Part shown: one piece after another, positions 45,767-63,731 of the stretch | Numbering within the stretch: the stretch's first letter is position 1 | Layout: every line of letters begins with the position of its first letter | Origin: Planctomycetia bacterium TMED53 | GTDB taxonomy: Bacteria; Planctomycetota; UBA8108; UBA1146 | Direction: 5' to 3' | Length of the DNA: 64,000 bases | Assembly (NCBI GenBank): GCA_002167285.1 | Contig: NHDG01000060.1 | Coordinates: 6,208-70,207, forward strand | The notes under the pieces: model-generated | Database searches by the model: none | What the model was told of the DNA's origin: nothing | The model's input: the letters and a program-made list of their open reading frames with translations, nothing else | Position numbers and translations under genes: made by a program

Positions 45767-45925
45767 CGATCGCCCCCTGACTGCCTGGAACTTGCGAGCA
45801 GGAGAAGGCCTGTTCGCAATCGCTCAAGATACATCCGGTAAAGCATGGAAGCACCCAGATTGGGGGGTGTAGGGGCTGATTGGAGGAAATTTACCGGGAT
45901 TCGTCCCAGGAGCGGTTCAACCTCT

Positions 45926-48667: not shown

Positions 48668-48688
48668 TCAGACCTCAAAAATCAGACC

Positions 48689-50491
48689 TCAAAAGTAGTA
48701 CTTGAATTGGATCGAAGAAAACCAACCGGAATCAGGATTTGTACCAAATGCATCTCCAGGTTGAAAAAATCCGACTTCAAATTCCATGTCCAGCTGATCG
48801 AAGACATCGTTCAATCCGATGACGAGATCGATTTCTGTACCCAACTCAGAGTCAATTCCGTTTGGGCTAATCTTGAGTCTGGATCTGCGTAGAAAGTCCG
48901 CCGGCTCTACTTGATTATACTGGTGAAAGGCAATATCTACGCTGGTGTTTTCCCTAGGCAAGAAGCCGGCACCAAGGGTGAGTATCGACATGTTCGATAG
49001 CTCGGGTCTCAGCAATACACCTAGATACCTGTAGGAAGAAATTCCAAAGTATCGGGAATTATTGTCCTGGTAGCCTGTTTGCCTAAAGTTGTTGTCTGTG
49101 CCATCGTCGGGATCGTCATCTCCTGATCCCCAAGCCCAGCCACCAAACACGTATGGTTTTCCCCACAAATCGCCAAATCTTCTGGCAGCTTTAAGGTCGA
49201 ACCCAAAGGCAGAGATTTCGTCAAATCCAGATACGCCGGCAACGTAGGCGGCGTCAGCCCACCAGCGCAAGTCTCCACCCATGGTTCTTCCGTGAGACTG
49301 CAAGCCGATGAAGAAAGGGGATTCATTGGGAAGTTGAACGGTCAATTCGGGGTCGAATTCGCGATCCTGAATTACATCAATAATATAAAGCGAATGTTGG
49401 GTTTTTGATTCTGGTCGATAGGTGCCAACCAATATGTGCTGGTGTCGATCCTTCAACTCGACAGGTGGATCTCCAAAAAATGTCGACCATGAAGCCTCAA
49501 CTGAGTAGGGGCCTTCTTCCCAAATCAAACGCACCGCATCCAGTGAGCTGTCGTAAAACCACTCTCTGCCTTCGTCAAAATCCATTCGTCCTATTTGAAG
49601 AGAAATGGGATAGCCACCGATGCCGCGTTGGAAGTAATACAGCTCTTCCAATCCAAGGTCTTCTTCAGAGAGGGTTACTGCTTCGTCATCTTCGTCAGTT
49701 GTCGAACTTTTTGATCGACCTTTTCCAAAAATGAAACGATCTTCGTCGATGGACCAAAGGGCTTGCAGCGAGATGGACCACTCTTTGTCGGTTCTATCTG
49801 CTTGATCTAAATCAGAGAGATCAAGGTTGTTGCGCTCTTCGAACTCATAGTAGAGCCTTCCGGCAAGTCCTAACCGACCGTCAAGATAGCTTCTGCGCGA
49901 ATTTGGTCTCCGCTCATCCCGGTCATACAAAGGCTTCGCAATTTTGCGAAATACTCCACCGGGTATTTCAGTGGAATTTCCAATCCGACAAGGGATTCCA
50001 TGAATGATGAGGATTGGGACACCATCTTCATCGATTTCTTGCGCTTCTACGTATCCCTCTAACTCCAAGAGCCCGATTTTTCTTTCTGAAGGTGAAGTCT
50101 CAACTTCAACTTCGATGGCTTTGAAAACCAATGGAGAAACAAATTCACCTTCAATTTCGACTCGCCAACCGATTTGAATCTCATCAAGTTCGTGCGATTC
50201 CTCATCATCTTCGGAGTCGTCGAAATCAGTTTCTTCATCGATGAGGATGGTGAAGGGGCCAACCTTCATCTGAGATTGGTCTGTGTAAACCGCATCGACA
50301 AATCCTTTGATCTCTAGATAGTCATCGTCTTCTTCCCGAACTAATTTGACGGCCTCAAGAACTTCGCCGTCGAATCTTCCATCTACTTCTACTCGGGTTC
50401 CCGCGGGGAACTGAATTTCATTCTTCGAATCGTCGGATTCTGCGGATTGCCCAAGAAGCAAAAATGTCACCAATATCATGTTGATGTTCAT
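48689..50491 (-). CDS. Outer-membrane beta-barrel of the alginate-export (AlgE-like) family with acidic N-terminal beta-rich periplasmic region
   Basis: Signal peptide MNINMILVTFLLLGQSAES (its ATG overlaps the upstream stop as ATGA). FRQTGYQDNN motif, alternating beta-strand pattern and C-terminal ...SSIQFKYYF (terminal Phe). Confidence 0.6.
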   Translation of the reverse strand: MNINMILVTFLLLGQSAESDDSKNEIQFPAGTRVEVDGRFDGEVLEAVKLVREEDDDYLEIKGFVDAVYTDQSQMKVGPFTILIDEETDFDDSEDDEESHELDEIQIGWRVEIEGEFVSPLVFKAIEVEVETSPSERKIGLLELEGYVEAQEIDEDGVPILIIHGIPCRIGNSTEIPGGVFRKIAKPLYDRDERRPNSRRSYLDGRLGLAGRLYYEFEERNNLDLSDLDQADRTDKEWSISLQALWSIDEDRFIFGKGRSKSSTTDEDDEAVTLSEEDLGLEELYYFQRGIGGYPISLQIGRMDFDEGREWFYDSSLDAVRLIWEEGPYSVEASWSTFFGDPPVELKDRHQHILVGTYRPESKTQHSLYIIDVIQDREFDPELTVQLPNESPFFIGLQSHGRTMGGDLRWWADAAYVAGVSGFDEISAFGFDLKAARRFGDLWGKPYVFGGWAWGSGDDDPDDGTDNNFRQTGYQDNNSRYFGISSYRYLGVLLRPELSNMSILTLGAGFLPRENTSVDIAFHQYNQVEPADFLRRSRLKISPNGIDSELGTEIDLVIGLNDVFDQLDMEFEVGFFQPGDAFGTNPDSGWFSSIQFKYYF

Positions 50492-51585
50492 TTGAAGACC
50501 CCTTGCCATTTCCCTGTTCCCATTAGTAACTCTTCCAGATCTTCTTCTATTTTTTGCAAGAGATCGGAAGGTCTTTGCCGACGTGAGTAAATCAGAAGCA
50601 ACCGTGCAAATGTAGACGCGGTCCAGGTCTTTAGTCTTTCACTTGGAATACCACTTTGCGCGAGCATATTCGAAATTCTGGAGGCGCATTCCAGCCAAGG
50701 GACTGGTAGTCCCTGAAGAGATCGCAGACGGAGATGAGCAATGATATTTCCTGCATCGAGGGCCGGATCAGAGATCGCCAGTAAGTCTAAGTCTAGAAGA
50801 GTTACTGTTGATTCTGATATCAAGACTTGCTTGTCGTGAAAATCCCTGTGGCAAACTACTGGTGGTATCTCATTTAAAGATTTCAAACGTTCGATCACCG
50901 TATCAACCAGCCTTTTTACACCAGTAGGGGGCGCAGCCAGAATTCTGTGAAAAACTTCGTCTCTTTTTTGTAAAATTTTAATCTCGTCTTTTGCTGAATG
51001 AGTGGGAAGAGTGTTATCAGCCTCACTCTTTGCCAACCAAGACAAGATGTCAACTATGCTATCGATGTGAGTGGAATCCCATTGCCCAGATTTCCACAAT
51101 TCATTGAGGCTTTTACCCTGGGCTTCTTTAACGGTGAGCACCAAATTTTTGTGGTCCCATTGAGTGATCTCTGGAATAGAAATCGAATTGTCTGGAGACT
51201 TTTTCGAGAGGTATTGCCAACGTTCGAGGACTTGGCGGTTCTTTCTGAACACTTTTGCGAAGCAATTGTCTCCTAGCCTGAAAATAGCGCGGCTCCCCAA
51301 GCGCCAAGCCAGTAGCTCCACGGAGATTCCATTTGTTATCCAATGATTAATCACTGAAGAAAGTGCCGGAAGTCTCCTGTCTTCAAGGGGGTGCTGTTCT
51401 TTGAGTTTTCCCTTTTCTGATAGGTGGTACCACTTTGTTGCGTTCTCTCCTGATTGCCCATGCAGGCAGTACCAGCCACCCTTTCGAGATTCTTCCACGC
51501 GGAGCCATGGCCCGGTGCTTTCAAGTGCATTGGCTAATTCAGGAATCAAGTGCTGGGTCCAAAGATCAGAATCTTGACTATTCAT
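50488..51585 (-). CDS. Aminoglycoside-phosphotransferase (APH)/choline-kinase-fold kinase, substrate unknown
   Basis: Catalytic loop CHRDFHDKQVLI and Mg-binding LLDLDLL. Confidence 0.6.
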   Translation of the reverse strand: MNSQDSDLWTQHLIPELANALESTGPWLRVEESRKGGWYCLHGQSGENATKWYHLSEKGKLKEQHPLEDRRLPALSSVINHWITNGISVELLAWRLGSRAIFRLGDNCFAKVFRKNRQVLERWQYLSKKSPDNSISIPEITQWDHKNLVLTVKEAQGKSLNELWKSGQWDSTHIDSIVDILSWLAKSEADNTLPTHSAKDEIKILQKRDEVFHRILAAPPTGVKRLVDTVIERLKSLNEIPPVVCHRDFHDKQVLISESTVTLLDLDLLAISDPALDAGNIIAHLRLRSLQGLPVPWLECASRISNMLAQSGIPSERLKTWTASTFARLLLIYSRRQRPSDLLQKIEEDLEELLMGTGKWQGVFK

Positions 51586-52903
51586 CTTTCAGACCCTCCA
51601 GCAATCTGAGGCAGCGATCAACAGCTGAGGTCAGTTCATCGGGCCATGTGGGTGATAAAGATCTGAACGGTTCAAATGCTTTACGCAAACAAGCCAGCGA
51701 CCTGCCGAGATTGATTTCACCTTCAGAGATCTTCTGTGGGGTGACAGATTGATACGAGTCGAGTAGATGAGTGACGACAGCTTCTGATACACCACTTGAG
51801 ATCAAATCTTCCATCAAATTTGCTAAATCAAAGCAAGCATAGCCTCTTCCAGCTCGATCAAAGTCGAGAAGGTACAAATCCTTGTCGTCAGACAGAATCT
51901 GTTTTTGATGGAGATCCCCATGTGCAAGAACTGAAGAATGAAGGCTTAAGGTTGGCAGCTTCTTCTTAAGTCGATTTGCAAGAGTCAAAAGATTGAATCG
52001 AACCTCTGGAAGTAGGCGAGATAGATCCTCAATCAGGATATCGACTTCCATGACCAAAACTTGAGGTGGAGAGTGGGTGGTAAGTTCTAATGGAATTTGG
52101 TGGAACTCATTGATTGCCTTCGCAGTATTTTCAATCAGTTCAGTAGAGCGTTCTGCACCAAAATCGGGGTGTTTGCCATCGATCCATTCATGGCCAAAGA
52201 TATTCATTGCTGGGCTTGTTCCTACAAACCTTGGTGTCTTAAAGTGGTTGCAGCCTTCTGTTGCATTGGAGATTGAAAGCGCCAAATTTTTGGATTGGGT
52301 AATCGACTTTCTATTCTCGATTTTCAAATGCAGTAGTTTACGAATTTTTAAGTCTTCTTGGAGGTTTCGTAACTTGAGCTTGGTTTGAAGTACTGCTCGC
52401 CTTCCGGGTTTATAAGCGATCAATTTGTGGCGAGTAAGGCTGCGTTGAAGTCTCCATTGGTCGTAGCTAATTGCACCCAGCATGGGTTCAATTAATCGTC
52501 GGAACCGATTGGGTTCAAAAATTCTTCTCAACTGAGGAATCTCTTCATCTCCTGGGAATGGCAAGCACACAGCCATCAATTCTTCATCGACGAATGGCTT
52601 TAAGTGGGCGGAGCTTGCGCCCAAATTTTTGGCCACTATCTTTTCGTGAAATTCCTTAGCTGAGGAGAGGGTCGAGAATAGACGAACGTTCATGCCTTGT
52701 GGAGGGGAATCAGCAGTTCCCGGTTCAGTCCCACTGATGAACAGTCTACACGACTCCGGTTTGTTACGCAGGTATCGGATGGAACTTGGCAGGTCTGGTA
52801 TGTCAAAGACCAGTCCGGATTTTTGCCACTCTTTCCAAGGCTCTCCGGAAAGAAATGACGAAAGACCCGGTGGTGCTTGTTTAGGTACTGGGAAACCACT
52901 CAT
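51578..52903 (-). CDS. APH-fold kinase with ~200-aa N-terminal extension, substrate unknown
   Basis: AHGDLHQKQILSD and LLDFDRAGRGYACFDLANL motifs. Confidence 0.6.
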   Translation of the reverse strand: MSGFPVPKQAPPGLSSFLSGEPWKEWQKSGLVFDIPDLPSSIRYLRNKPESCRLFISGTEPGTADSPPQGMNVRLFSTLSSAKEFHEKIVAKNLGASSAHLKPFVDEELMAVCLPFPGDEEIPQLRRIFEPNRFRRLIEPMLGAISYDQWRLQRSLTRHKLIAYKPGRRAVLQTKLKLRNLQEDLKIRKLLHLKIENRKSITQSKNLALSISNATEGCNHFKTPRFVGTSPAMNIFGHEWIDGKHPDFGAERSTELIENTAKAINEFHQIPLELTTHSPPQVLVMEVDILIEDLSRLLPEVRFNLLTLANRLKKKLPTLSLHSSVLAHGDLHQKQILSDDKDLYLLDFDRAGRGYACFDLANLMEDLISSGVSEAVVTHLLDSYQSVTPQKISEGEINLGRSLACLRKAFEPFRSLSPTWPDELTSAVDRCLRLLEGLKDE

Positions 52904-54744
52904 GAATTTCCTCCCAACAGCTTTCGTGGGAGTATTCTTTCGGTGATCTGACCACTCTTCAGAACTATTCTGGATTCAAAACTGGAGGTCAATTCTTCGT
53001 CATGGGATATGACAATCAAGGTTTTGCCTTTGAAGTCCTCTAGCAGCATTTGCTGAATCAAAGTTCTGCTTTCAGGATCAATCGCTGTGGTCGGTTCATC
53101 TAGGACGACAATGGGGGAGTTTCGCAGCAATACGGTGCTGAGTGTGAGTCTGCGCTTTTCACCTCCCGAAAGATCCTGGCCTCCCTCTGTAAGTTCTCGA
53201 TCCAAACCATCAGGATCATCGAGGAGGAAGTCGCATCTCGCTCGCTTTAACGCATCAATCATTTGTTCCTCTGAAGCGTCTGGCTTGTGGAATTGTAGGT
53301 GTTCCCGAACGCTGCCTGACAAGATGAAGCTCTCCTGTAACACGATGGAGAGTTGCTCTCTCATGCTTTTTAGTTCCCAATTTTTAATGGGAATGCCGTC
53401 GATTGAAATGTGTCCTTCATCTGGCTCGAAGAGTCGGAATAACAAAGCGGTCAATGTGGTCTTCCCTGAACCGTTGGGCCCAGTCAAAACCACATGCTCC
53501 CCTTCAGAAATATCAAGGTTCAAATTGTTGATGACCTTGCGATCGGGGTCTTCCGATTGGGTTTGATCTTCAGCGAGTGAAGTGGAGGTCGAGTGGTAGG
53601 AAAATGTCAAATTCCGAAATTGAATAGATCCTTTGAATGGCGGAGCCTCGACGGCATCAGGATGATCTGATTCTTCAGGATTGATCGTTAAAATTTCTGA
53701 TATTCGATCTGCACATGCCGCTGCTTTACCAATTTTTCCTGATAGTCGGGCTGCTTTTCGTAAAGGTTTCTGTAATGAACGAACATATGAAATGAAAACC
53801 AATAGATCCCCTGGTGTCATCGCTGCCCCGGCGAATTGAGGGGACTCTGAGCTGATCAACACCCGGTATGCTCCTGCCAGGAGAACTACCGATAGGCCCC
53901 CAGCAAAAATTAACTCTGTCCACCTAGAAAGGGCTGCTTGGAGCCTCGTTGCCCGGACACCCTGACGTAAGGAGGATCGATTTTTACGAGCAAACTTTCG
54001 AACTACTTCAGATTCACGCCCTAAAGTCTTAATCAACTTCAATGAGGACAAGCCCTCACCAGTCGTGAAAGCGATGTCGCCTTCATGTTCTCTTTGCTTT
54101 TTAGCGACTTTGGTAATTTTGACACTGAAGACTCTGGCCAATACGGTAATCAAAACCAGAACCACCAATGAAACCAATGAAAGTTGCCAATCGATCAGTC
54201 CCATCAATGCCAAGGTAACAACAGCCTGTAGAAGCCTTCCGAAAAAATCGATCAGTTCTGTAGAAAGCACATCCCTGAGCATCGGTACGTCGCCCGTGAT
54301 TCGTACCAATAGGTCTCCCAGCTTTTGGTCTCTGTGAAACCTCAATGAAAGGAGCAAGAGGTGGGAGTAAACACGCTTACGTAGTTTCATGATCATTCGC
54401 TGACCGGCAACTGCACTGGTTACAGTTCTGATATATCCGGCGATTCCTTGCCCCACTGAAATCAGAAGTACTGCGAGGCTGACGAATGCTAAGAATTGAA
54501 TTGGCTGGCTGGCAGGCCACTCTGGATTAATAAACGGGAGAGTGTCTGCATTTTTTGGCATCAGTAGGCCGTCGAAAATATACTTCACTGGCCATGGAGC
54601 TAGTAGAGCGAATCCGATTTCAAAAATTAGTGCAACAGAAGAGGCTCCAAGAAGGGGTGCTTGAGCCTTGAGAAGATCACCGTGTTTACCAGTGATCGTG
54701 CGCCAATCATGGAGACCTTTTTTTAAGGTAGTCGAGGCGCTCAT
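52900..54744 (-). CDS. ABC exporter, fused permease/ATPase (MsbA/PglK-like type I exporter)
   Basis: About 6 N-terminal TM helices. GPNGSGKTT (Walker A), LSGGEKRR (signature) and VVLDEPTTAID (Walker B). Confidence 0.85.
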   Translation of the reverse strand: MSASTTLKKGLHDWRTITGKHGDLLKAQAPLLGASSVALIFEIGFALLAPWPVKYIFDGLLMPKNADTLPFINPEWPASQPIQFLAFVSLAVLLISVGQGIAGYIRTVTSAVAGQRMIMKLRKRVYSHLLLLSLRFHRDQKLGDLLVRITGDVPMLRDVLSTELIDFFGRLLQAVVTLALMGLIDWQLSLVSLVVLVLITVLARVFSVKITKVAKKQREHEGDIAFTTGEGLSSLKLIKTLGRESEVVRKFARKNRSSLRQGVRATRLQAALSRWTELIFAGGLSVVLLAGAYRVLISSESPQFAGAAMTPGDLLVFISYVRSLQKPLRKAARLSGKIGKAAACADRISEILTINPEESDHPDAVEAPPFKGSIQFRNLTFSYHSTSTSLAEDQTQSEDPDRKVINNLNLDISEGEHVVLTGPNGSGKTTLTALLFRLFEPDEGHISIDGIPIKNWELKSMREQLSIVLQESFILSGSVREHLQFHKPDASEEQMIDALKRARCDFLLDDPDGLDRELTEGGQDLSGGEKRRLTLSTVLLRNSPIVVLDEPTTAIDPESRTLIQQMLLEDFKGKTLIVISHDEELTSSFESRIVLKSGQITERILPRKLLGGNS

Positions 54745-55898
54745 CGTATCGCCTCTACAGCTTTGAGGATCTGCTGGGCGCGCATTTTCCAGGTTGCATT
54801 ATTTAAGACCCAGTCTCTGCATTTCTTGCCCAAGTCCGGTTGCTGATCCAGTCGCGATAAAACCTTTTGTATTCCTTTGGCAAACTCAGCTGGGTTCCCA
54901 GGGGTGATCAGTGCTCCACGATCTTCTTTAATCAGTTCGGAGATTTGTCCGCGATCAGTGGCAACGACAGGCAGTCCACAGCTGAAGTACTCAAAGATTT
55001 TCAAAGGAGAGAACCAGAACTCATCCATCTGGGGATAAGGTGCGACGCCCAAATCGCAATGCCCCAGCCAGGATCCGACAGCGGAGTGAGGGATACTTCC
55101 TGTGAAATGAACCCTTCCTGAAAGCCCTTTGTTTTGGACACTGACTTCAAAGGCATGTTTTCCAGGTCCGTCGCCAATACATAAGAGGTGAGCATCAGAG
55201 CCGAGTTCTTTGACTAGAATTTCGAAAGAGTGAAGTAAATCGTCGATGCCGTGCCATGGCCTGAATGTTCCAGTGAAACCTATGAGTGGAACGTCATTCG
55301 GGGGGAGATTACTGGGTCGCTTCGAATCTGAAGGTTTAAAGACTTCTTGGTCAACTCCGTTGGGAACCAGTTCTACTCCCTCACTATGCCCACGTTCTGA
55401 TTCAACCCACTCTTTGATCTCTTTGGAGACACAGATGACGACATCGGATTCCCTTAGAAGAAGACGAGAGAGACCACTGGCAAGATTTTCATTCGCCAGT
55501 TGACGATATTTTTTTGATTCTAAAGCAAGAGGGCTATTCACTTCCAAGACGAATGGAACTTCGTGTTTCCTAGCGAGGTAAAGGCCTCCGGGGTGCCACA
55601 GGCTATATCGCTCATACACAAAGTCATGAACGGTTTCGACATTATCGAGGCGTGCTAGAAAAAGCCGGCTTTCCCTCTCTTCTACAGATTTATGTTTCTT
55701 GCGAGGGGGGAGTTCCATCTCATGTATCGGCACTCCTTCAAGTTCTGTTGCCTCGGGTCGAATGGTGTACAAATCACCACCCAATCCGAGTTGGCGGAAT
55801 GCCTTACAGATCGATGCCACATGAATGCTTGCGCCCTTTTGACCAGGAACGGGGATTCCGGGATCTGCGCAAATGTAGGTGAAGTTGCTCAGAGTCAT
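54741..55898 (-). CDS. Glycosyltransferase, GT4-like (GT-B fold)
   Basis: 385 aa. N-terminal GxxxPGQKGASIHV and a C-terminal E-x7-E-like region (SPLKIFEYFSCGLPVVATD). Confidence 0.7.
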   Translation of the reverse strand: MTLSNFTYICADPGIPVPGQKGASIHVASICKAFRQLGLGGDLYTIRPEATELEGVPIHEMELPPRKKHKSVEERESRLFLARLDNVETVHDFVYERYSLWHPGGLYLARKHEVPFVLEVNSPLALESKKYRQLANENLASGLSRLLLRESDVVICVSKEIKEWVESERGHSEGVELVPNGVDQEVFKPSDSKRPSNLPPNDVPLIGFTGTFRPWHGIDDLLHSFEILVKELGSDAHLLCIGDGPGKHAFEVSVQNKGLSGRVHFTGSIPHSAVGSWLGHCDLGVAPYPQMDEFWFSPLKIFEYFSCGLPVVATDRGQISELIKEDRGALITPGNPAEFAKGIQKVLSRLDQQPDLGKKCRDWVLNNATWKMRAQQILKAVEAIR

Positions 55899-55900
55899 CG

Positions 55901-57166
55901 TTATTCCCCGTGCAGGGCACTGCTTTCAAAGTGAGCCTTGAGAGTGCCAACATTTGTTGAAAGATTGAAAAGAGTCTCTGCTCTTTTTCGTGCTGAACCG
56001 ACTTCCCAATCTCCTGATTCCACACGGCTTTTGAGATTTTTGATTCCTTCAGCCATGGCTTTGGCATTCCCAGGTTCAACTAACTCGCCAGAGCCGTCAG
56101 CCAAGATCTCCGGACAACCTGTCAATGTTGTGGAGACCGCTGGTAGATCTAAAGCGAGAGACTCGAGGAGAACTGTGGGCAGGGCATCCATATTGCCGTC
56201 TGCGTCAGGGATGCAAGCGAGAGCCATCATGGTCGCTTCGGAGCAGCTTCTTCTTACTTCTTCGATAGGAAGGGCTCCTAAAAACTTTACGTGATTTTCA
56301 AGGCCGAGTCGCTGGCTCAAGTGAAGGAGGCTCTCTTGGTCTTCACCATCTCCGATGATGCTGACTTCCAAGTTCAATTCTTCATCTAATAGCATCCGCA
56401 CGGATTCAAGGAGCACGCCAAAACCCTTTTTGGGAACCAGGCGTCCGACACTGATGATTTTGATGGGATCTGCACTCAAAGGACTTCTATCAGTTGGAAC
56501 TTCAAAGAAATCCAAATTGATTCCGTTGTAGAGCTTTTTGACCTTTTCAGCATCGATACCAGGAGTGTGGTCGAGAATGTACTTACGATTAAAGTCACTG
56601 ACCGTGATCGCAAAGGCGGATTTTTCGGTCAGTTCCCGAAATAGATTTCTATTGACGGTTTCTCGGAAGATATCCTTTGCATGACATGTAAATGAAAATG
56701 GGATTCCGTAGAGAATGTTGACCAATGCGGCCATGCGGGTGGAAATCGTGGCGAAGTGCGCATGAAGATGCTGAACTCCTCGCGATTTCGCCAAAGCGCC
56801 GATCCAGAGAGCTCGCAAAAGCATGTCGAGCTCTTTAGGAATCGAATGTTCACGCAAGAAATCGACAGCTTTTTGCCAGCGGTCCATACTAGGAACTAAT
56901 CCGGGCGGCAATTTCGATAATTTGTCCCAGTAAGATTCAGGCTTTTCTCTAAGAACGTATTCGATGGTGAGTTTGAGCTCGCTGAGGCTCCCGTGGAAAC
57001 GACCATCCCCTGGGGGCATTAGGCTGAAGACCTCAACTTCGACACCTTGTCGTTCAAGTTCAAGAATTTCATTCAAAATGAAAGTCTCTGACAACCTTGG
57101 AAACATTTTCAGAATGTAACCAACCTTGAGAGAGTGTTTAGGCTCTGAGGAGCTTTCCTTCGACAT
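55901..57166 (-). CDS. Glycosyltransferase, GT4-like (WcaL-type N-terminus)
   Basis: VGYILKMFPRLSETFILNEILELERQG resembles the WcaL-like family. C-terminal ..LLESLALDLPAVST. The start at MSKESS (57166) is chosen to limit overlap. The track ORF extends to 57283. Confidence 0.7.
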   Translation of the reverse strand: MSKESSSEPKHSLKVGYILKMFPRLSETFILNEILELERQGVEVEVFSLMPPGDGRFHGSLSELKLTIEYVLREKPESYWDKLSKLPPGLVPSMDRWQKAVDFLREHSIPKELDMLLRALWIGALAKSRGVQHLHAHFATISTRMAALVNILYGIPFSFTCHAKDIFRETVNRNLFRELTEKSAFAITVSDFNRKYILDHTPGIDAEKVKKLYNGINLDFFEVPTDRSPLSADPIKIISVGRLVPKKGFGVLLESVRMLLDEELNLEVSIIGDGEDQESLLHLSQRLGLENHVKFLGALPIEEVRRSCSEATMMALACIPDADGNMDALPTVLLESLALDLPAVSTTLTGCPEILADGSGELVEPGNAKAMAEGIKNLKSRVESGDWEVGSARKRAETLFNLSTNVGTLKAHFESSALHGE

Positions 57167-58430
57167 CGTAATCTTCTTTCCGAACTCGATTCTGTTGTTG
57201 GGTAAGGACGTCCTCGACCCTGGAGAGGAAGTTTCCGATTCCATCCATGCACAGCCCTGCTTCCTCTGCAGAAGGCGGCTCATGAATATCTAAAGACTCT
57301 TGAATCGTTTTCTTCAACAAGTGGGGAGACAGATCTTCAGGGTGGATGACCTTCAAGAGGTTTAACTCAGAAAACTTTGAGGCCCGAAGCCATTGCTCCA
57401 TACGTGGCTTGACTCTGGGGACGATGATGGTGGGTTTACGAACAGCGATCGCTTCCAATGTAGCGTTGTAACCACCCATTGAGACGATGGCGTCTGCGGA
57501 CCGTAAATGGTCCTCTAGGTGCGTTGTGAATCGTAAGATTTCAAGATTACGACAGCCCTGGAAGCGGTTGATGAGTGCTCGGGCAACCGATCGATCCATA
57601 TGTGGACCGGTGATCAGTGTCCCCAGGAATTTCTCAGGATTTTTGCCTAGAGCTTCAAGAAAAGTCGATCCCAGTGGAGTGCCATCTTCGCCACCTCCTG
57701 CGACGCAAACGATCTTCTTTTGGGAAGGGAACTTTCTCCGCAACGAGTTGAGGATCTCTTGATCCAAGGGGTTGGGTCTAATTCGACGGAGATATCCCAG
57801 GTAATCGATGCGTTCTCGAGTCTTCGGGGTGAGATTGTAAAGGCCTCCCAGATCGAAGATTTCCCGGTTGCCGTATACCCAAATATGATCGTAAAGAGAT
57901 TCAACGAGAAGATTGCTACCAGATCTCTTCCAACTCTCTTGAACAGATTGGCTTTCGTCAATGATGTCGCGCAGCCCTATCGCGAGTTGAGTTCCTCGTG
58001 ACTTGAGATCGGCGAGAAGCGGGACCAGTTCTCCAGTTAGACCTGTCGGGACATGATCGACAACGAGTAGATCAGGATCGAATGAAAGGAGTTCTCTTCT
58101 GATTTTGTCGCGTCTGCGTTCAAGGGCTGACAAAAGATCTAGTTGCGGATTTCGAGGGATATACCTGCCCTCTTCATCCTTTGTGACTGGCTCCATGAGG
58201 ACGAGTCGAGTATTCGCTGGGAGTTGGAAGAAGCTTGCCTTAGGCGATCCAGTAAGAAGTAAAATCTCAACATTGTCGAGGTGCTCTTGGACCCGATGCG
58301 CCAAGAGTAGGCAGCGTCGAAAATGCCCAAGCCCAAATCCGTCATGGCTGTAGAGAGCCAATCTACGGGGCTGGGGGGGGGTCACCCCTCGCAATTGGGA
58401 AATTGTGTCTTCACCCAAGTTCATCGACAT
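57138..58430 (-). CDS. Glycosyltransferase of the GT28-C-terminal/COG4671-like type (first gene of the operon)
   Basis: LALYSHDGFGLGHFRRCLLLAHRV N-terminus and C-terminal ..SMGGYNATLEAIA. Carries a C9 homopolymer at codons 17-20. Confidence 0.6.
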   Translation of the reverse strand: MSMNLGEDTISQLRGVTPPQPRRLALYSHDGFGLGHFRRCLLLAHRVQEHLDNVEILLLTGSPKASFFQLPANTRLVLMEPVTKDEEGRYIPRNPQLDLLSALERRRDKIRRELLSFDPDLLVVDHVPTGLTGELVPLLADLKSRGTQLAIGLRDIIDESQSVQESWKRSGSNLLVESLYDHIWVYGNREIFDLGGLYNLTPKTRERIDYLGYLRRIRPNPLDQEILNSLRRKFPSQKKIVCVAGGGEDGTPLGSTFLEALGKNPEKFLGTLITGPHMDRSVARALINRFQGCRNLEILRFTTHLEDHLRSADAIVSMGGYNATLEAIAVRKPTIIVPRVKPRMEQWLRASKFSELNLLKVIHPEDLSPHLLKKTIQESLDIHEPPSAEEAGLCMDGIGNFLSRVEDVLTQQQNRVRKEDYDVEGKLLRA

Positions 58431-58470
58431 GCCTCTCGTGACCCACTATGAAATGGTCAGAGAAATAACC

Positions 58471-58485
58471 GCAAATCAAATACCA
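58471..58485 (-). promoter_or_regulatory. Candidate sigma54 (-24/-12) promoter: TGGTAT-N5-TTGC
   Basis: The minus strand reads TGGTATTTGATTTGCG. GG and GC show the canonical 12-nt G-to-G register, 41 nt upstream of the ATG at 58430. A sigma54-dependent activator gene lies immediately upstream. Confidence 0.4.
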
Positions 58486-58605
58486 TAAAGAAGGTATCGT
58501 GGGGGGGGCTTAATGGGAGCTTGCATGTTTTTTGTAAGTCGTTATTTTTAAATGAGATACGTGAATCGAATAGGGCGGGGAGACGGAGCCGAGAAGGGTT
58601 TTGGG

Positions 58606-58679
58606 CGGCCGAATATAGCCATGAGGAGTAGCGGCTAACTTTGTCGGTTGAATATGGCCACCCCCGGCGAAATGTAGCC
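58606..58679. promoter_or_regulatory. Three phased 15-bp direct repeats (candidate enhancer/UAS)
   Basis: CGGCCGAATATAGCC (58606-58620), CGGTTGAATATGGCC (58645-58659) and CGGCGAAATGTAGCC (58665-58679). Spacing is 39 and 20 bp, 120-200 bp upstream of the candidate -24/-12 element. Confidence 0.35.
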
Positions 58680-58686
58680 TAGGCCC

Positions 58687-60072
58687 TTACAGCCCTCTTT
58701 TATCGAGTCTATGCCGTAAAGCTCCACGTGTCAGTCCCAACAATCGGGCGACTTCCGAGACATTACCGCTGGTGAAGTCCAGTGCCTGTTGGAGTAGTCG
58801 GGTTTCCACTTCAGCAAGAGTGCAGGAATGGTCGGAAAAATCGAATTGGATGTTGTCCAGTGCCAGTGGTCCATGCACCACATTACCTTCACTCCCATGC
58901 AAGTCGAGGGAGGGAGAAGCGAGGGTGTCTTCTGCGCTAATCAGCACCATTCTCTCGATGGTATGTGCCAACTCGCGAATATTTCCTGGCCAGCTGTACT
59001 TGCGTAACTCCGCACGAACTGAATCTGGAATATCCAGCTGTTCCTTACGATATTTCTTCCCATGGATTTCAACAAAGTGATCGATCAGGAGATCTAGGTC
59101 TTTGCCACGATCTCTGAGGGCTGGAAGTGTGATAGAGACGACCTTCAATCGGTAGTACAAGTCCGATCGAAATGAACCATCCCGGGATGCTTGTTCCAAA
59201 TTTTGGTTCGTTGCTGCGATGATTCTGACATCCGCAGAGTATTCACGGGTTCCCCCAACTCGGCGGACTTTTTTGGTTTCAAGCACATTGAGTAATTTGG
59301 TTTGCATTTCGAGGGGCATATCGCCGATCTCATCGAGAAAGATCGTCCCTCCAGCTGCAACTTCAAAGAGGCCCTGTTTCTGTTGAGAGGCCCCGGTGAA
59401 TGAGCCCTTTTCATGGCCAAAGAGTTCACTCTCGATCAAGTCTTTGGGTAGTCCGCTACAGTTGACCTGTAAGAAGGGGAATCTTGATAAGCTTCCCTTT
59501 TCATGAATGTGTTTTGCTAGCAAATCCTTACCGACACCGGTTTCACCACCGATCAATACGGTTGGAAGTTCGGCAGCTTTGTCGATGGGGATTTGAGACA
59601 ACTGATCGACCACTTCTAAGACTTGTTTGATCGCTGGACATTCCCCTACGATCGACTGTTTCTCAGTAAGGGCAGAAACACGTTCATGTGCATCAACCAG
59701 TCTTCTCATCTCGGCATTTTGAAGCTCTCGCTCGACGACAAGGTTGAGTTCTTCCAGGTCGAGAGGCTTTTCTAGATAATCGAGAGCGCCTTCTTTCATC
59801 GCCTCGACCGCGCTGTCGACTGAAGCGAATGCTGTCACCATCAGTACGGGGACTTCCGGAAGCTCTTGGCGCAAGCTTCTTAGGACCTCTAGTCCATCGA
59901 TGTCAGGAAGTTGAACGTCGAGGATCGCCATATCGATCGACTCGTTTTTGATAATTTTAAGAGCTTCCGCGCCAGTCTCTGCGGGGAGGCAACGATGGCC
60001 TCCACGACCTAACTCAAGTGTCAGTGATTGAAGCAGAGGAATCTCATCATCCAGAATGAGGATCTGTGCCAT
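58687..60072 (-). CDS. Sigma54-dependent Fis-family response regulator (REC-AAA+-HTH, NtrC type)
   Basis: REC domain with ILDVQLPDIDG. AAA+ domain with GETGVGKDLLAK, EKGSFTGA (GAFTGA variant) and FLDEIGDM. C-terminal HTH GNVSEVARLLGLTRGALRHRL. Confidence 0.9.
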   Translation of the reverse strand: MAQILILDDEIPLLQSLTLELGRGGHRCLPAETGAEALKIIKNESIDMAILDVQLPDIDGLEVLRSLRQELPEVPVLMVTAFASVDSAVEAMKEGALDYLEKPLDLEELNLVVERELQNAEMRRLVDAHERVSALTEKQSIVGECPAIKQVLEVVDQLSQIPIDKAAELPTVLIGGETGVGKDLLAKHIHEKGSLSRFPFLQVNCSGLPKDLIESELFGHEKGSFTGASQQKQGLFEVAAGGTIFLDEIGDMPLEMQTKLLNVLETKKVRRVGGTREYSADVRIIAATNQNLEQASRDGSFRSDLYYRLKVVSITLPALRDRGKDLDLLIDHFVEIHGKKYRKEQLDIPDSVRAELRKYSWPGNIRELAHTIERMVLISAEDTLASPSLDLHGSEGNVVHGPLALDNIQFDFSDHSCTLAEVETRLLQQALDFTSGNVSEVARLLGLTRGALRHRLDKRGL

Positions 60073-61546
60073 CTCCTGCTCCTTCCTCGCCTTCTCGGGC
60101 TTCTGTACTTCGTAACGGGATGGTCAGTTTAAACTGACTGCCGATTCCCAGTTCGGATTCCACTTCGATCTGTCCACCATGTCCGGCCACGATCCGCTGA
60201 GAGAGTGACAGGCCCAATCCAAGTCCCGACTTTTTCGTCGTAAAGTATGGCTTGAAGAGGTTTGACAGAGTCTCCTCCGACATTCCGTGACCGTCATCGG
60301 AGACCTCGATGATGATGACTTCACCCTCAGATCTCCCGGATAATCTTACCACACCACCAGGATCACAGGACTCAATCGCATTATTAAGCAGGACCAAGAT
60401 GGTCTGTTCGATCTTTCTTTCGTCAATTTTTACCTTAGGAATTGGACCCGTTATCGTAAATTCTACCGAAACCTGTCTCTTGTCTGCGTAGCCTTTTACC
60501 GCTTCACAAATCGATGGAATTCGAGCTTCCAATTCTGCCTCACCATAGCTCAACTTGATCGGTTTAAGGCCCTTGAGAAGATCTTTGAGCCATCTGTCTG
60601 CACGGTCTACAGTCTCCAAAATCTGCATTAGAGACTGGTCAGAATCACTTCCCTTTTCGGAACGTAATCGGGTTTGAGCAAGGGCTCTGATACTCCCTAG
60701 AGGGTTTCTGACGTTGTGCGCGATGGTGGCAGTCATTTCACCTACTGCCGCAAGGCGTTCACGGTCGACTAATTGGGCTTGGGTTTTTGAGATTTCTGCT
60801 GACATCGATTCGACGTCTCTTGCCAGTAGACCTAGTTCATCCTGTGAAGTGATGGGGATTATTTCGCCATATCGGCCCCCAGAGATCTCTCTGGTTGCAC
60901 TTGAGAGTAATTCGAGGGGAGTGACGATCCAGTGTCTGACAAGGAAATAAAATCCAAGTCCAAAGATGATCAGTGCGAATGCGGTTCCTTGGAAGATGAG
61001 CTTCAGGCGCGCGTAACTAAGGTTTGATTCGATCTCCAATTCCTTCATTTGATTTTGGAGCTGAGTTTCCAAAGCTTGTAAGGCGACTGTCATGTCAGGG
61101 ATTAAACGGTTTTTGAGCCATTTGCGGGGGAGATCCAGGTTTCGTGAATCTGTTCCTTCTTCATCAAGGTATCGAAGGGCTCTTTTCACGGCTCTGTCGA
61201 AATCGGTGACAGGTTTGGAGAGGGATTCGATAGATGTTCGAACAGTTTTCGATTCCTCATCCAGATCTGTGATCATTCTTCGAATCGTTTCTTTGCAAAT
61301 GTCCAGTCGCCCAAAGAATCTGGTGCGATCCGCTGGTTGCCAATTTGCCAAGTCCTCAATTTCTGCACTTGCTGAGAGTAATAGATCTCGAATCTTGCCC
61401 GCTGATATGAGTCGATCTCTTCCTGCTGACCCTTCGGCGACGGTTTTATCCAAATCTTGAATCACATTGAGAGATAGAATCCCAACTGAGAAGAAGAGAA
61501 GAAGCAAACCAGAAAAGAGTAGTCGGAGTCGAGTTCTGATGAGCAT
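60047..61546 (-). CDS. Sensor histidine kinase (2 TM, periplasmic sensor, HAMP, HisKA, HATPase_c)
   Basis: H-box MTATIAHNVRNPL, N-box LLNNAIES and G-boxes DDGHGM / GLGLGLSLS. The start at MLIRTRLRLLF (61546) is chosen over the track start at 61606, which overlaps the upstream gene by 56 nt. Confidence 0.85.
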   Translation of the reverse strand: MLIRTRLRLLFSGLLLLFFSVGILSLNVIQDLDKTVAEGSAGRDRLISAGKIRDLLLSASAEIEDLANWQPADRTRFFGRLDICKETIRRMITDLDEESKTVRTSIESLSKPVTDFDRAVKRALRYLDEEGTDSRNLDLPRKWLKNRLIPDMTVALQALETQLQNQMKELEIESNLSYARLKLIFQGTAFALIIFGLGFYFLVRHWIVTPLELLSSATREISGGRYGEIIPITSQDELGLLARDVESMSAEISKTQAQLVDRERLAAVGEMTATIAHNVRNPLGSIRALAQTRLRSEKGSDSDQSLMQILETVDRADRWLKDLLKGLKPIKLSYGEAELEARIPSICEAVKGYADKRQVSVEFTITGPIPKVKIDERKIEQTILVLLNNAIESCDPGGVVRLSGRSEGEVIIIEVSDDGHGMSEETLSNLFKPYFTTKKSGLGLGLSLSQRIVAGHGGQIEVESELGIGSQFKLTIPLRSTEAREGEEGAGDGTDPHSG

Positions 61547-61550
61547 CGAA

Positions 61551-63731
61551 TCACCGATTCCCTTTGAGATCATATTGGAATCGAAGTGGTTGCTCAGGTT
61601 TCCCACGATGCGCCGGGATCAAAACAAGTAATTCAAGAACGCCTGATTTTGATTTCAAATCAGAGGTAGTGACTAAGAATGAATCTGCGGTGAAATCTAA
61701 TTTCGTTGACTGTGGTTGCCCGTCCAAAGTCAAAGTTACCTGCGGTTGAGGTTGGTCCTGATTAAGGAAAATCCTCCATGACAAGCGGTCTGAGGCGGTC
61801 AGTGATCCCTTGGCTGGGGAGATACCGACGACTTCGGTGATTCGAGGATTGATGGGGGCTGGCAGTCGATCAAGTTCTCCAGAGCTCACGGATCCAGAGG
61901 GCAAATTTGAGATGCTCGACCATAGCCTCGGGCTTGCGCTTTTTAGAGGATTGGAACCCGGAGTGAGTTCGCATTCGATGAGTTGTACCGTTGGGAGCTC
62001 TGTTAATTCATCAAGGACCGCAGATTCCCCATTCGAGTGAAGCGAGGAGTGCACCAATTTCAGTAAGCCGGCACTCGAATTGACCGCACCATGTAGCCCA
62101 TTTTGACTGAGTTCACTATCTCTCACTCGCACCAATGCATCTGTTGAATCACCAGACAGGTATAACCCCGCACTCCCACGATTACCGATCAATTCCGAAT
62201 ATGAAACTGAGTAATCTCCTTGTGCATCCGTATCGAGATATATGCCGGATTTTTTGTTTTCGCGAATAGAGCAGTGCTCAACTCGGATTCTTAAATCAAC
62301 GGGATCTGCATCTGTGTAACGAAGATCAAGCCCTAGACCATGGTCTTCGTTTTTAAAGCAATCGACGCCAAGGAGGCTGATGCGAACACGAGGGGTGTCT
62401 TTGGGATCATCTCCAACTGGTTTAGCAATGCGAAGGTGAAATCCGATATCACCATTATTAGAGATCTCAACTCTATGTAGATCGAGGCGAGTTTTTTCAC
62501 CATGCACCGGTTGAAGAGAGGGTGCAGAGATACCACTCTGCTCGTTCGCTCGAAATCGGCTTTCGCGGATGGAGAGATCAACGAATCCCTCTATTCGTAA
62601 ACCGTCCCCCTGATTCTTTTCGATGTCGCAATACAGAATAGCCCCGGAGGCTTCGCCCCCGTCGTCGACATCCGTTTCGATTTGTACCCCTTTGTCGACA
62701 AAACCTTCGATCAAGCAATGGGATATCCTAAGCACACAATCGTCTGCGACGATTGCCCTGCGAGCGATTCCCTCACCAGGAAAGAGAAATCCATCGATCA
62801 CCACGAGGCTTTTTCCCGGAGGGATGATGATCGAGTCTTTGTTTTTAGCGCCCTTTACGATGGTTTTATTGATCTTAGGCAGAGAGAGGCTGCTAAATCC
62901 GCTTGCGAAGCCACCATAGAGACTCATGCCATCGAAGAGGAGAAATTGTTCCGGATACGTTCCAGCGGCAACAAAGATGTTTACGCCAGGTAGGCCAATG
63001 GCTGCACCGATTGCTTCATCGATGGTTTTTATTGCGGACTGAGGGTGTGTTCCTGAACCTGAAGATTCTACCGAGCTATCAACAAACAGAACCGGATTGG
63101 GTACCGCTGACCATTCAAGCTCGTTGTCGTCGGACTTTCCCGAGGGATCACTAGCTCGAACGACGACATGACAAGAAGTGCCATTTTCCAAACCGGTTAA
63201 ACGGCATGAAGTGACCCCCGGTTCGGTGATGAGTAGAGGGGGTGCATTGAAATCTTGTTTACCAGAACGATTCGCTAGGAAAATGTGATAGCGAATCTGA
63301 TCTGATGGAGAGTAGTCATCTACTGCCATCGACCACGTGAGATACAATTCACGATCACCTGCAATGAGTTGTTTTAAGCCCATGAATCGAGGTGGAGATA
63401 GATCCTGATCGGGCGGATCAAAGGAGGACTCATTGGGTGGAATCCTGGGTGGAGTCATGGGTAGTTCGAATGTATGAGGTGGGAGAGTGGAGGTGTCAGT
63501 TGTTTGAACTTTTTCAACTGGCGGAAGTGGCGACATTTGTGGTTTCGAGACCGGATCACAGCCACCAATAAAAAGAAGCGCACAAATGCAAAGGAGTTGA
63601 ATGAAGTCGATTTGGGCTAGTAAGTTTGACTCCCCATTAGAACTCACTTCATGAACTTTGTTCACACCGGTGACCATACCGGTAATACCGGTGCAGCAGT
63701 CAGCAAGGTGGGATGGGCCTTTGACGTTCAA
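61551..63731 (-). CDS. Beta-helix (PbH1) repeat lipoprotein with Fn3-like domain, paralog of 45926..48667
   Basis: Lipobox-like LLCICALLFIGGC. Fn3-like ELYLTWSMAVDDYSP..YHIFLA. GTYPEQFLLFDGMSLYGGFASGF aligns with GLYPENLFLLPGMMVFGGFDSSF of the 913-aa protein. At least 6 PbH1-type repeats. The exact start is uncertain. Confidence 0.6.
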   Translation of the reverse strand: MNVKGPSHLADCCTGITGMVTGVNKVHEVSSNGESNLLAQIDFIQLLCICALLFIGGCDPVSKPQMSPLPPVEKVQTTDTSTLPPHTFELPMTPPRIPPNESSFDPPDQDLSPPRFMGLKQLIAGDRELYLTWSMAVDDYSPSDQIRYHIFLANRSGKQDFNAPPLLITEPGVTSCRLTGLENGTSCHVVVRASDPSGKSDDNELEWSAVPNPVLFVDSSVESSGSGTHPQSAIKTIDEAIGAAIGLPGVNIFVAAGTYPEQFLLFDGMSLYGGFASGFSSLSLPKINKTIVKGAKNKDSIIIPPGKSLVVIDGFLFPGEGIARRAIVADDCVLRISHCLIEGFVDKGVQIETDVDDGGEASGAILYCDIEKNQGDGLRIEGFVDLSIRESRFRANEQSGISAPSLQPVHGEKTRLDLHRVEISNNGDIGFHLRIAKPVGDDPKDTPRVRISLLGVDCFKNEDHGLGLDLRYTDADPVDLRIRVEHCSIRENKKSGIYLDTDAQGDYSVSYSELIGNRGSAGLYLSGDSTDALVRVRDSELSQNGLHGAVNSSAGLLKLVHSSLHSNGESAVLDELTELPTVQLIECELTPGSNPLKSASPRLWSSISNLPSGSVSSGELDRLPAPINPRITEVVGISPAKGSLTASDRLSWRIFLNQDQPQPQVTLTLDGQPQSTKLDFTADSFLVTTSDLKSKSGVLELLVLIPAHRGKPEQPLRFQYDLKGNR

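Follow-up and report, generated by a model that had tools for sequence, protein, structure and literature searches.

What controls an envelope-glycan operon in an uncultured planctomycete, and does the 256-bp gap in front of it hold the switch? In Planctomycetia bacterium TMED53, the 64,000-nt stretch of contig NHDG01000060.1 analysed here (the window) carries genes for a sensor kinase and a response regulator on one side of this gap and a glycosyltransferase gene on the other. The original prediction, made from the window alone, was that this two-component system switches on the glycan operon through a sigma-54 promoter and repeats upstream of it. We put the probability that the gap is a sigma-54-dependent control region, with a three-dyad enhancer for the adjacent two-component activator, at roughly four in five (0.82). 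Its elements are real, are conserved in sequence and position over about 19 species and are specific to the orthologous locus. Transcriptional regulation in uncultured marine Planctomycetota is almost wholly undescribed, and such a region would provide a regulatory handle on an uncharacterised and widely conserved envelope glycan, possibly hydrocarbon, operon.

Gene context of the gap

The minus strand carries all genes from 63731 down to about 24849 (Table 1). A beta-helix protein is encoded first, followed by the kinase and the activator, whose genes overlap by 26 nt. The REC-AAA+(GSFTGA)-HTH activator and its partner kinase had been recognised from the translated sequence, and Pfam bears both assignments out, with REC, AAA+ and HTH_8 domains in the activator and HAMP, HisKA and HATPase domains in the kinase encoded by the overlapping upstream gene. 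The activator is the best-conserved protein of the locus. Its AAA+ domain matches PF00158 with E = 2e-64, its motifs are intact (D8, D9 and D52; Walker A GETGVGKD; GSFTGA at 223-228; Walker B FLDEIGD) and its Fis-type HTH, GNVSEVARLLGLTRGALRHRL, is nearly invariant across orthologs. The nearest solved structures are those of Aquifex NtrC1, the top match (1ny5 and 4l4u; E = 1e-91), and NtrC4. The activator falls below every NCBIfam equivalog cut-off tried, including those of NtrC, AtoC, PrsR, ZraR and LuxO. It scores 394.5 bits against a cut-off of 558.6 for the NtrC model TIGR01818, 387.8 against 714 for the AtoC model and 330.9 against 502.6 for the PrsR model TIGR02915, while the kinase scores 193 against 646 for the AtoS model and 105.6 against 300 for the PrsK model TIGR02916.

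After the GT28 gene come two GT4 genes, an MsbA-like ABC exporter, two APH-fold kinases, an AlgE-like porin and a second beta-helix protein. A 159-nt gap then precedes genes for a PfaD-like enoyl reductase and for PfaA-like (KS-AT-4xACP-KR-DH) and PfaC-like (KS-CLF-2xFabA) megasynthases, beyond which lie OleA/B/C/D-like genes and a PPTase. As neither terminator nor sigma-70 signals are in excess inside 44000-58440, the transcript may run on into the pfa/ole genes. The controlled transcription unit is probably larger than the glycan operon named as the target in the original prediction, and may include pfaD/A/C, oleABCD and the PPTase gene. Autoregulation and a second target within the window were considered and rejected, there being no dyad cluster upstream of the beta-helix and kinase genes or in the 45767-45925 gap.

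Table 1. Coordinates of the genes flanking the gap and of the elements within it (window numbering).
Feature	Position	Strand	Description
Beta-helix protein	61551-63731	minus	first gene in the minus-strand series
Sensor histidine kinase	60047-61606	minus	TM, ~150-aa periplasmic helical domain, TM, HAMP, HisKA, HATPase
NtrC-family enhancer-binding response regulator	58687-60072	minus	461 aa; REC, AAA+ with GSFTGA, HTH_8 (Pfam)
Intergenic gap	58431-58686		256 bp, between activator gene and GT28 gene
Dyad 1, distal	58665-58680	minus	AGGCTACATTTCGCCG; centre 188.5 bp upstream of GG, predicted at ~-213; 6 nt past the activator stop
Dyad 2	58645-58660	minus	TGGCCATATTCAACCG; centre 168.5 bp upstream of GG, predicted at ~-193
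Dyad 3, promoter-proximal	58606-58621	minus	TGGCTATATTCGGCCG; centre 129.5 bp upstream of -24 GG, ~-154 from predicted start
A+T-rich spacer	58520-58560	minus	candidate DNA-bending site, with IHF-like AAATAACGACTTA (58547-58535)
Sigma-54 type -24/-12 promoter	58470-58485	minus	TGGTAT-TTGAT-TTGCG, TGGTATTTGATTTGCG; GG 58484-83, GC 58472-71
Predicted transcription start	58457-58461	minus	~58459, from usual sigma-54 geometry with the C of GC as -12
GT28/MurG-like glycosyltransferase	57138-58430	minus	operon gene 1, ATG at 58430

Promoter, spacer and repeats

Read on the minus strand, the gap runs from the activator TAA through three repeats, an A+T-rich stretch and a C8 run to TGGTATTTGATTTGCG and a leader of about 39 nt. 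The promoter motif is present as predicted, TGGTAT-N5-TTGCG occupying 58485-58470 with GG and GC in the -24/-12 register, and the predicted distance of 41 nt to the first glycosyltransferase gene is likewise correct, counted in positions from the C of GC to the ATG at 58430. Two hallmarks of a sigma-54 promoter are found here, namely TGG-N8-TTGC, its GG and GC exactly one helical turn apart, in the correct orientation before a gene and, in the neighbouring regulator, an AAA+ activator with a GAFTGA-type loop (GSFTGA). The -24 box of the window (TGGTAT) and the base after its -12 box (TTGCG) deviate from the consensus TGGCAC/TTGCW. By itself, the -24/-12 motif shows no enrichment in the 64-kb window (4 matches with at most one mismatch against 5.1 expected), and strict TGG-N8-TTGC on the motif strand arises in the shuffled intergenic region with P = 0.009. 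The significance of the promoter comes from its conservation in orthologous loci, which is described below. From the predicted start, the leader to the ATG would be about 29 nt.

Metatranscriptomes (three runs from two studies) yield sparse, short, low-depth and unstranded contigs, which are patchy over the glycosyltransferase genes, lie outside 58235-58561 with its promoter and leader, and give no 5' ends. One contig from an RNA run spans 58562-58782 and crosses the activator stop and the dyads, a pattern that would fit read-through transcription or DNA carry-over. With this contig, and with no terminator behind the activator gene, a degree of read-through out of the upstream operon is likely and could give basal expression of the glycan operon.

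A source of sigma-54 was also sought. No rpoN is present among the ORFs of the window that were scanned with Pfam (all but five, which lie between 16.3 and 24.9 kb), and a regular-expression search for the RpoN-box motif gave no match in the window or in all 190 fetched loci (1.8 Mb). Indirect support for rpoN comes from the intact activator, from the conserved promoter and from the literature. The cultured planctomycete R. baltica has rpoN as RB6491 (PMC2754498), and Planctomycetes "often possess RpoN" (PMC3372290).

The spacer between promoter and repeats contains the most A+T-rich 30-mer (80%); the A+T-rich stretch reads TCATTTAAAAATAACGACTTACAAAAAAC on the minus strand. An IHF site or an intrinsic bend is common, though not obligatory, at this place between an enhancer and its promoter. 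Across the 19 loci, 11 have a match of 7-8 of 9 to the IHF consensus WATCAANNNNTTR at an offset of -60 to -62 from TGG. Single matches are weak, 8 of 9 being reached in 10% of shuffles.

The three 15-mers of the original prediction lie where they were placed, at 58606-20 (CGGCCGAATATAGCC), 58645-59 (CGGTTGAATATGGCC) and 58665-79 (CGGCGAAATGTAGCC), with start spacings of 39 and 20 bp; on the minus strand they read GGCTACATTTCGCC, GGCCATATTCAACC and GGCTATATTCGGCC. The last ends 7 nt from the activator stop codon TAA (58689-87). Their description as helically phased direct repeats holds only in part. The copies do share one orientation, but each forms a 16-bp dyad of imperfect symmetry (TGGC-N8-GCCA, with AT at its centre) rather than a simple repeat, and while 20 bp corresponds to 1.9 helical turns and is roughly in phase, 39 bp corresponds to 3.7 turns, about 100 degrees off-face. 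Dyad symmetry suits a dimeric Fis-type HTH. An upstream activating sequence is expected to hold at least two dyad sites some 80-250 bp upstream of the promoter, and the gap holds three 16-bp dyads at such distances. Their arms are poorer than the family consensus (AGGC..GCCG, TGGC..ACCG and TGGC..GCCG). With at most one mismatch, the degenerate 15-mer has 3 matches in the 64 kb against 0.17 expected, and none of 100 shuffles reaches 3, a test that is partly circular because the pattern was derived from the same three copies; there is no further copy in the 64-kb window. In shuffles, at least three GG[CT]-N8-[GA]CC dyads in the 256-bp gap occur with P = 0.00065.

Other readings of the gap itself were rejected. 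It contains neither an intrinsic terminator nor a sigma-70-like promoter, has no match in Rfam and no RNA structure beyond that of shuffles (z = -0.24, 77/200 shuffles as good), and none of its ORFs bears a sign of conservation. Every test of an RNA element, a terminator, a sigma-70 promoter or a small ORF was negative. Phase variation at the G8 tract beside the promoter was also discarded, as the one difference that other metagenomes show nearby is 58508 G>T (G7T), with the length unchanged.

Conservation across orthologous loci

With the activator protein as query, 18 orthologous loci were recovered from uncultured, mostly marine Planctomycetota MAGs at 59-92% identity. The gene order beta-helix/kinase/activator, gap, GT28/GT4/GT4/ABC/APH is kept in all 18 and in L106, and the kinase is retained in every ortholog whose DNA extends that far. 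The 19 gaps, including that of the window, were anchored without alignment gaps on the T of the -24 box, and pairwise identity was averaged over clade representatives. Identity is 0.97 at the seven positions of the core promoter (TGG and TTGC), and 0.33 in the spacer, 0.33 in the repeat region overall and 0.27 in the leader, values that are essentially random. TGG-N8-TTGC is found in 18/18 orthologous gaps, one of them with GGG in place of TGG. Several of these promoters, such as TGGCATTACATTTGCA, are nearer to consensus than that of the window, and the distance from the T of TGG down to the likely glycosyltransferase start is 55-65 nt in most loci. For near-identical strains, the promoter is unchanged in three independent metagenome assemblies, and the dyads are unchanged in two of these and in a fourth assembly, as far as the contigs cover them.

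The dyads are equally constrained in place. In the 17 closest gaps, 56 of the 62 pattern matches fall at three or four fixed places, and in all 17 close orthologs dyads are centred 187.5-189.5, 166.5-168.5 and 126.5-129.5 bp upstream, counted from the first G of the -24 GG. A fourth dyad, centred at 107.5-108.5 bp, is present in the L012-L016 clade. The 51 distinct sites give the consensus TGGCYAnATnnnGCCA. Positions left free in the search pattern are conserved too (T1 in 39/51, Y5 in 51/51, A6 in 35/51, A8 in 43/51, T9 in 40/51 and A16 in 39/51), which argues for an imperfect 16-bp dyad with a central AT. The left half is better kept than the right, and all copies have the same orientation. 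Centre-to-centre spacings are 20-23, 39-40 and 19 bp, of which the first alone comes close to whole helical turns; the most strictly conserved feature is the distance of each site to the promoter. In the L007-L016 clade an extra block is conserved, ATATCGACAnnTCnnGAC, which lies 22-40 bp before the -24 box. This clade also carries the canonical GAFTGA loop, GSFTGA being found in the clade of the window and in L017 and L018. That the promoter is kept in both the GSFTGA and the GAFTGA clades argues that GSFTGA is functional. Phylogenetic footprinting over 18 loci, with dyads in 17, thus strongly supports the proposed sigma-54 switch.

Specificity of the elements

When one mismatch is allowed, TGGC-N8-GCCA has a density of 9.0 per kb in orthologous gaps against 0.64 per kb in 277 kb of flanks, a 14-fold difference. 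A general motif of related activators was rejected as an explanation, since behind 59 non-orthologous activator genes (about 40% identity) the same pattern is unenriched, with 0.17 per kb over the 300 bp downstream. A scan for the strict three-dyad pattern in one genome per species (185,579 species) returned 110 stretches, of which 80 were fetched. Within these 80, TGG-N8-TTGC lies within 220 bp only at orthologous loci (L091, L106, L114, L134, L139 and L154), L106 being a new ortholog, and a further orthologous locus, L126, has a GGG variant of the -24 box. The other stretches are chance matches in GC-rich genomes or tandem repeats. The idea of a wider regulon was accordingly dropped, since dyads and -24/-12 motif were combined only at the orthologous locus among the 80 of 110 stretches fetched. 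A Thermoanaerobaculaceae locus from the same scan, L094, looks analogous. In the literature, no paper was found for the motif TGGC-N8-GCCA or its variants.

Discussion

The match between this arrangement and that of E. coli atoS-atoC-atoD leads us to propose a classical sigma-54 enhancer mechanism for the window locus. Its course would be as follows, with the dyad-binding protein, the DNA bend, the number of dimers per hexamer, the start site, the signal and the length of the transcript all being predicted. The kinase, presumably sensing the periplasm, would phosphorylate Asp52 of the activator. Activator dimers would occupy the three dyads, with centres about 154, 193 and 213 bp upstream of the predicted start, and the three dimers may combine into one AAA+ hexamer. 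About 80 bp before the start, the A+T-rich IHF-like segment may bend the DNA and aid looping, whereupon the hexamer, by means of its GSFTGA loops and ATP hydrolysis, would convert the closed complex that sigma-54 RNA polymerase forms at TGGTAT-N5-TTGCG into an open one. Transcription would then proceed from near 58459 through the GT/ABC/kinase/porin genes of the envelope-glycan operon and might continue into pfa-ole. Read-through from the activator gene, which has no terminator, could express the operon as well. The pairing of this activator with these dyads is suggested by their adjacency and co-conservation.

The closest known parallel is E. coli atoSC-atoDAEB rather than Vibrio syp, the example named in the original prediction. 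In both the ato and the window locus, kinase, activator, gap and target operon follow one another on one strand, and AtoC and the window activator, each of 461 aa, are 38% identical end to end. The AtoC and AtoS models are among the best NCBIfam matches for the window activator and kinase, although scores far below the equivalog cut-offs indicate that the window proteins are not orthologs of AtoC and AtoS. The atoC-atoD gap matches that of the window element for element, with the activator stop codon, then a 20-bp inverted-repeat pair, then an IHF-like block rich in A+T, and finally TGGCAC-N5-TTGCT before the target gene. AtoC reportedly binds the atoC-atoD palindrome at about -146 to -107. 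The recognition sequence of the window locus differs from that of AtoC, and its family has three or four separate dyads over 60-80 bp at -130 to -215, whereas ato has one palindrome pair nearer to the promoter. The systems also differ in their targets, an envelope glycan/lipid operon in the window and short-chain fatty-acid catabolism in ato, and in their loops, GSFTGA in the window activator and GAFTGA in AtoC.

NtrC, the top NCBIfam match, has the REC-AAA+-HTH_8 architecture in common with the window activator, and at glnAp2, as in the window, several dyad sites lie upstream of a -24/-12 promoter. NtrC dimers bound at enhancer dyads assemble into a hexamer. The NtrC site is TGCACCA-N3-TGGTGCA, from which the window consensus TGGC-N8-GCCA differs, and, unlike in the NtrC system, no nitrogen-assimilation genes are nearby. 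An NtrC-type regulator beside a glycosyltransferase/export locus is also seen for SypG/syp of Vibrio fischeri, PrsK/PrsR and VpsR of V. cholerae. The PrsR model is the fourth-best NCBIfam match to the window activator, and VpsR is among its PDB matches. PrsK/PrsR loci, however, specify PEP-CTERM/exosortase EPS, and the window showed neither PEP-CTERM nor exosortase genes; the syp enhancer sequence is not known to be related to the window dyads. Gene content also sets the window apart from the syp, PrsR and VpsR loci, with its MsbA-like exporter, APH-fold kinases and AlgE-like porin followed by pfa/ole.

Alternative explanations differ in what they make of the dyads. If the promoter is real but the dyads are bound by another protein, such as a repressor, a nucleoid protein or a different activator, the window activator would act from solution or from other sites. 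The departure of the window dyads from the consensus arms is in keeping with such a binder, and the conserved block in the L007-L016 clade hints at further factors. Nonetheless, the dyad cluster is found only directly downstream of a gene for an activator ortholog, an invariant HTH goes together with a maintained site consensus, and the number, symmetry and distance of the sites (-130 to -215) are typical of NtrC-family enhancers, as comparison with atoC-atoD illustrates. We consider a different binder to be rather improbable.

The prospect is slimmer still that the elements act within the RNA of a read-through kinase-activator-GT transcript, in processing, in translational control or at the 3' end of the activator mRNA. 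The missing terminator after the activator gene and the RNA-run contig over 58562-58782 are what such a role would lead one to expect, but the gap folds no better than its shuffles and is without a match in Rfam, and only TGG and TTGC, across 8 nt that vary, and the 4-bp arms of the dyads, around cores that vary, are conserved. A bipartite core and short conserved arms are the signature of protein-DNA contact rather than of base-paired stems. A third possibility, that the elements regulate nothing and are matches by chance or copies of a dispersed genomic repeat, would account for a -24/-12 pattern that by itself occurs at the chance rate in the window. This explanation is close to refuted by the position-specific conservation in about 19 species against a randomised background, by the absence of another 15-mer copy from the 64-kb window together with a near-chance density in 277 kb of related flanks, and by the shuffle probability of 0.00065 for three or more dyads.

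A sigma-54-dependent control region served by the adjacent activator is therefore preferred. A more ambitious version of it would make the dyads a rigid, stereospecific enhancer platform instead of one flexible in position, its three or four dimer sites staying within 1-2 bp of set distances from the -24 element (about 18, 16, 12 and 10 turns) in species whose intervening DNA is randomised, with TGGCYAnATnnnGCCA as an undescribed specificity of an NtrC subfamily and the platform as the single environmental master switch of a ~33-kb glycan-export/PUFA-synthase/OleABCD transcript. We find this extended version doubtful, if well short of implausible. Were it true, export of a phosphorylated surface glycan would be coupled to PUFA-synthase/OleABCD hydrocarbon synthesis in abundant marine Planctomycetota.

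In its mechanism the switch is a textbook one, and the new part is a candidate recognition motif for a subfamily of NtrC-family activators. Promoter and activator could be rebuilt in E. coli, which would make the signal and the regulon approachable without cultivation. Natural GSFTGA and GAFTGA variants both accompany the conserved -24/-12 promoter, and the tight conservation of the enhancer-promoter distance is a modestly interesting datum on enhancer geometry.

Proposed control regions of orthologous loci

The activator (58687-60072) is the best-conserved protein of the locus, with 59-92% identity across the orthologous Planctomycetota loci L001-L018; the corresponding ranges are 36-79% for the sensor kinase, 39-80% for the glycosyltransferase GT28 and 29-57% for the beta-helix protein. 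L007-L016 share a clade-specific conserved block, ATATCGACA(C/T)nTC(T/G)(C/T)GAC, between an A+T-rich block and the -24 box of the sigma-54-type promoter, 22-40 bp upstream as counted from the -24 T; it is a candidate operator through which a further regulator might act. The window's clade lacks this block. L017, the most divergent marine ortholog, carries two enhancer-promoter modules in tandem within a 1.1-kb gap (L017:7395-8510). The DNA between the modules is rich in homopolymers and holds no convincing ORF, and the arrangement could have arisen by duplication of the control region or could serve a small RNA transcribed from a sigma-54 promoter.

Features of the window and of related loci
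Feature	Position	Description
C9 run (coding sense)	window 58373-58381	codons 17-20 of first glycosyltransferase
C8 run	window 58501-58508	16 nt upstream of -24 box
PUFA-synthase and Ole genes	window 24849-45766	PfaD/PfaA/PfaC-type PUFA synthase, then OleA, OleB, OleC, OleD, PPTase; same strand as glycan genes
Clade block, example copy	L008:7083-7101	
L017 module 1	7715 (TGGTCCGTGACTTGCT)	dyads, then AAAACGACTTACA, then TGGTCCGTGACTTGCT
L017 module 2	7992-8172 (dyads); 8190 (TGGCCCTCATCTTGCC)	four-dyad cluster, then TGGCCCTCATCTTGCC

The window has a perfect TGGCTCTCTACAGCCA dyad at 58345-58360, within the glycosyltransferase gene and downstream of the predicted transcription start by ~100 nt, of which orthologs have versions with one mismatch. 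Because it overlaps the codons for a conserved (L/I)A(L/F)YSHDG motif, constraint on the coding sequence probably accounts for this dyad. A layout analogous to that of the window locus occurs in a different phylum, in a Thermoanaerobaculaceae MAG (L094:2950-3460, minus strand), where three TGGC-N8-GCCA-type dyads follow the end of an activator gene whose product is 40% identical, with GGGCACGAGCCTTGCG and a gene for a small secreted protein ~85-125 bp beyond them. This resemblance may be a coincidence of GC-rich DNA or may reflect HTH specificity in common.

Homopolymer runs, signs of expression and downstream genes

Neither the C9 nor the C8 run is kept in the orthologs. Three other metagenome assemblies have T at position 58508, so that the plus strand reads G7T; the base is substituted and the length of the tract is unchanged. 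In run X1 contig breaks coincide exactly with the homopolymer run at 58371-58382, and a contig of run X2 reads across it without change. Over window 55800-59403, short contigs 95-100% identical to the glycosyltransferase genes occur in three metatranscriptome runs from two studies, one aquatic and one of a hydrothermal vent, and are scarcer over the activator gene than over the glycosyltransferase genes. These matches suggest that the operon is expressed in situ, with DNA carry-over as an alternative source of the contigs.

Only a 159-nt gap, in which there is no terminator call and no dyad, parts the glycan genes from the Pfa/Ole genes. The latter are predicted to encode a polyolefin hydrocarbon pathway, with OleA KSIII-like, OleB an alpha/beta hydrolase, OleC an AMP ligase and OleD of the 3-beta-HSD family.
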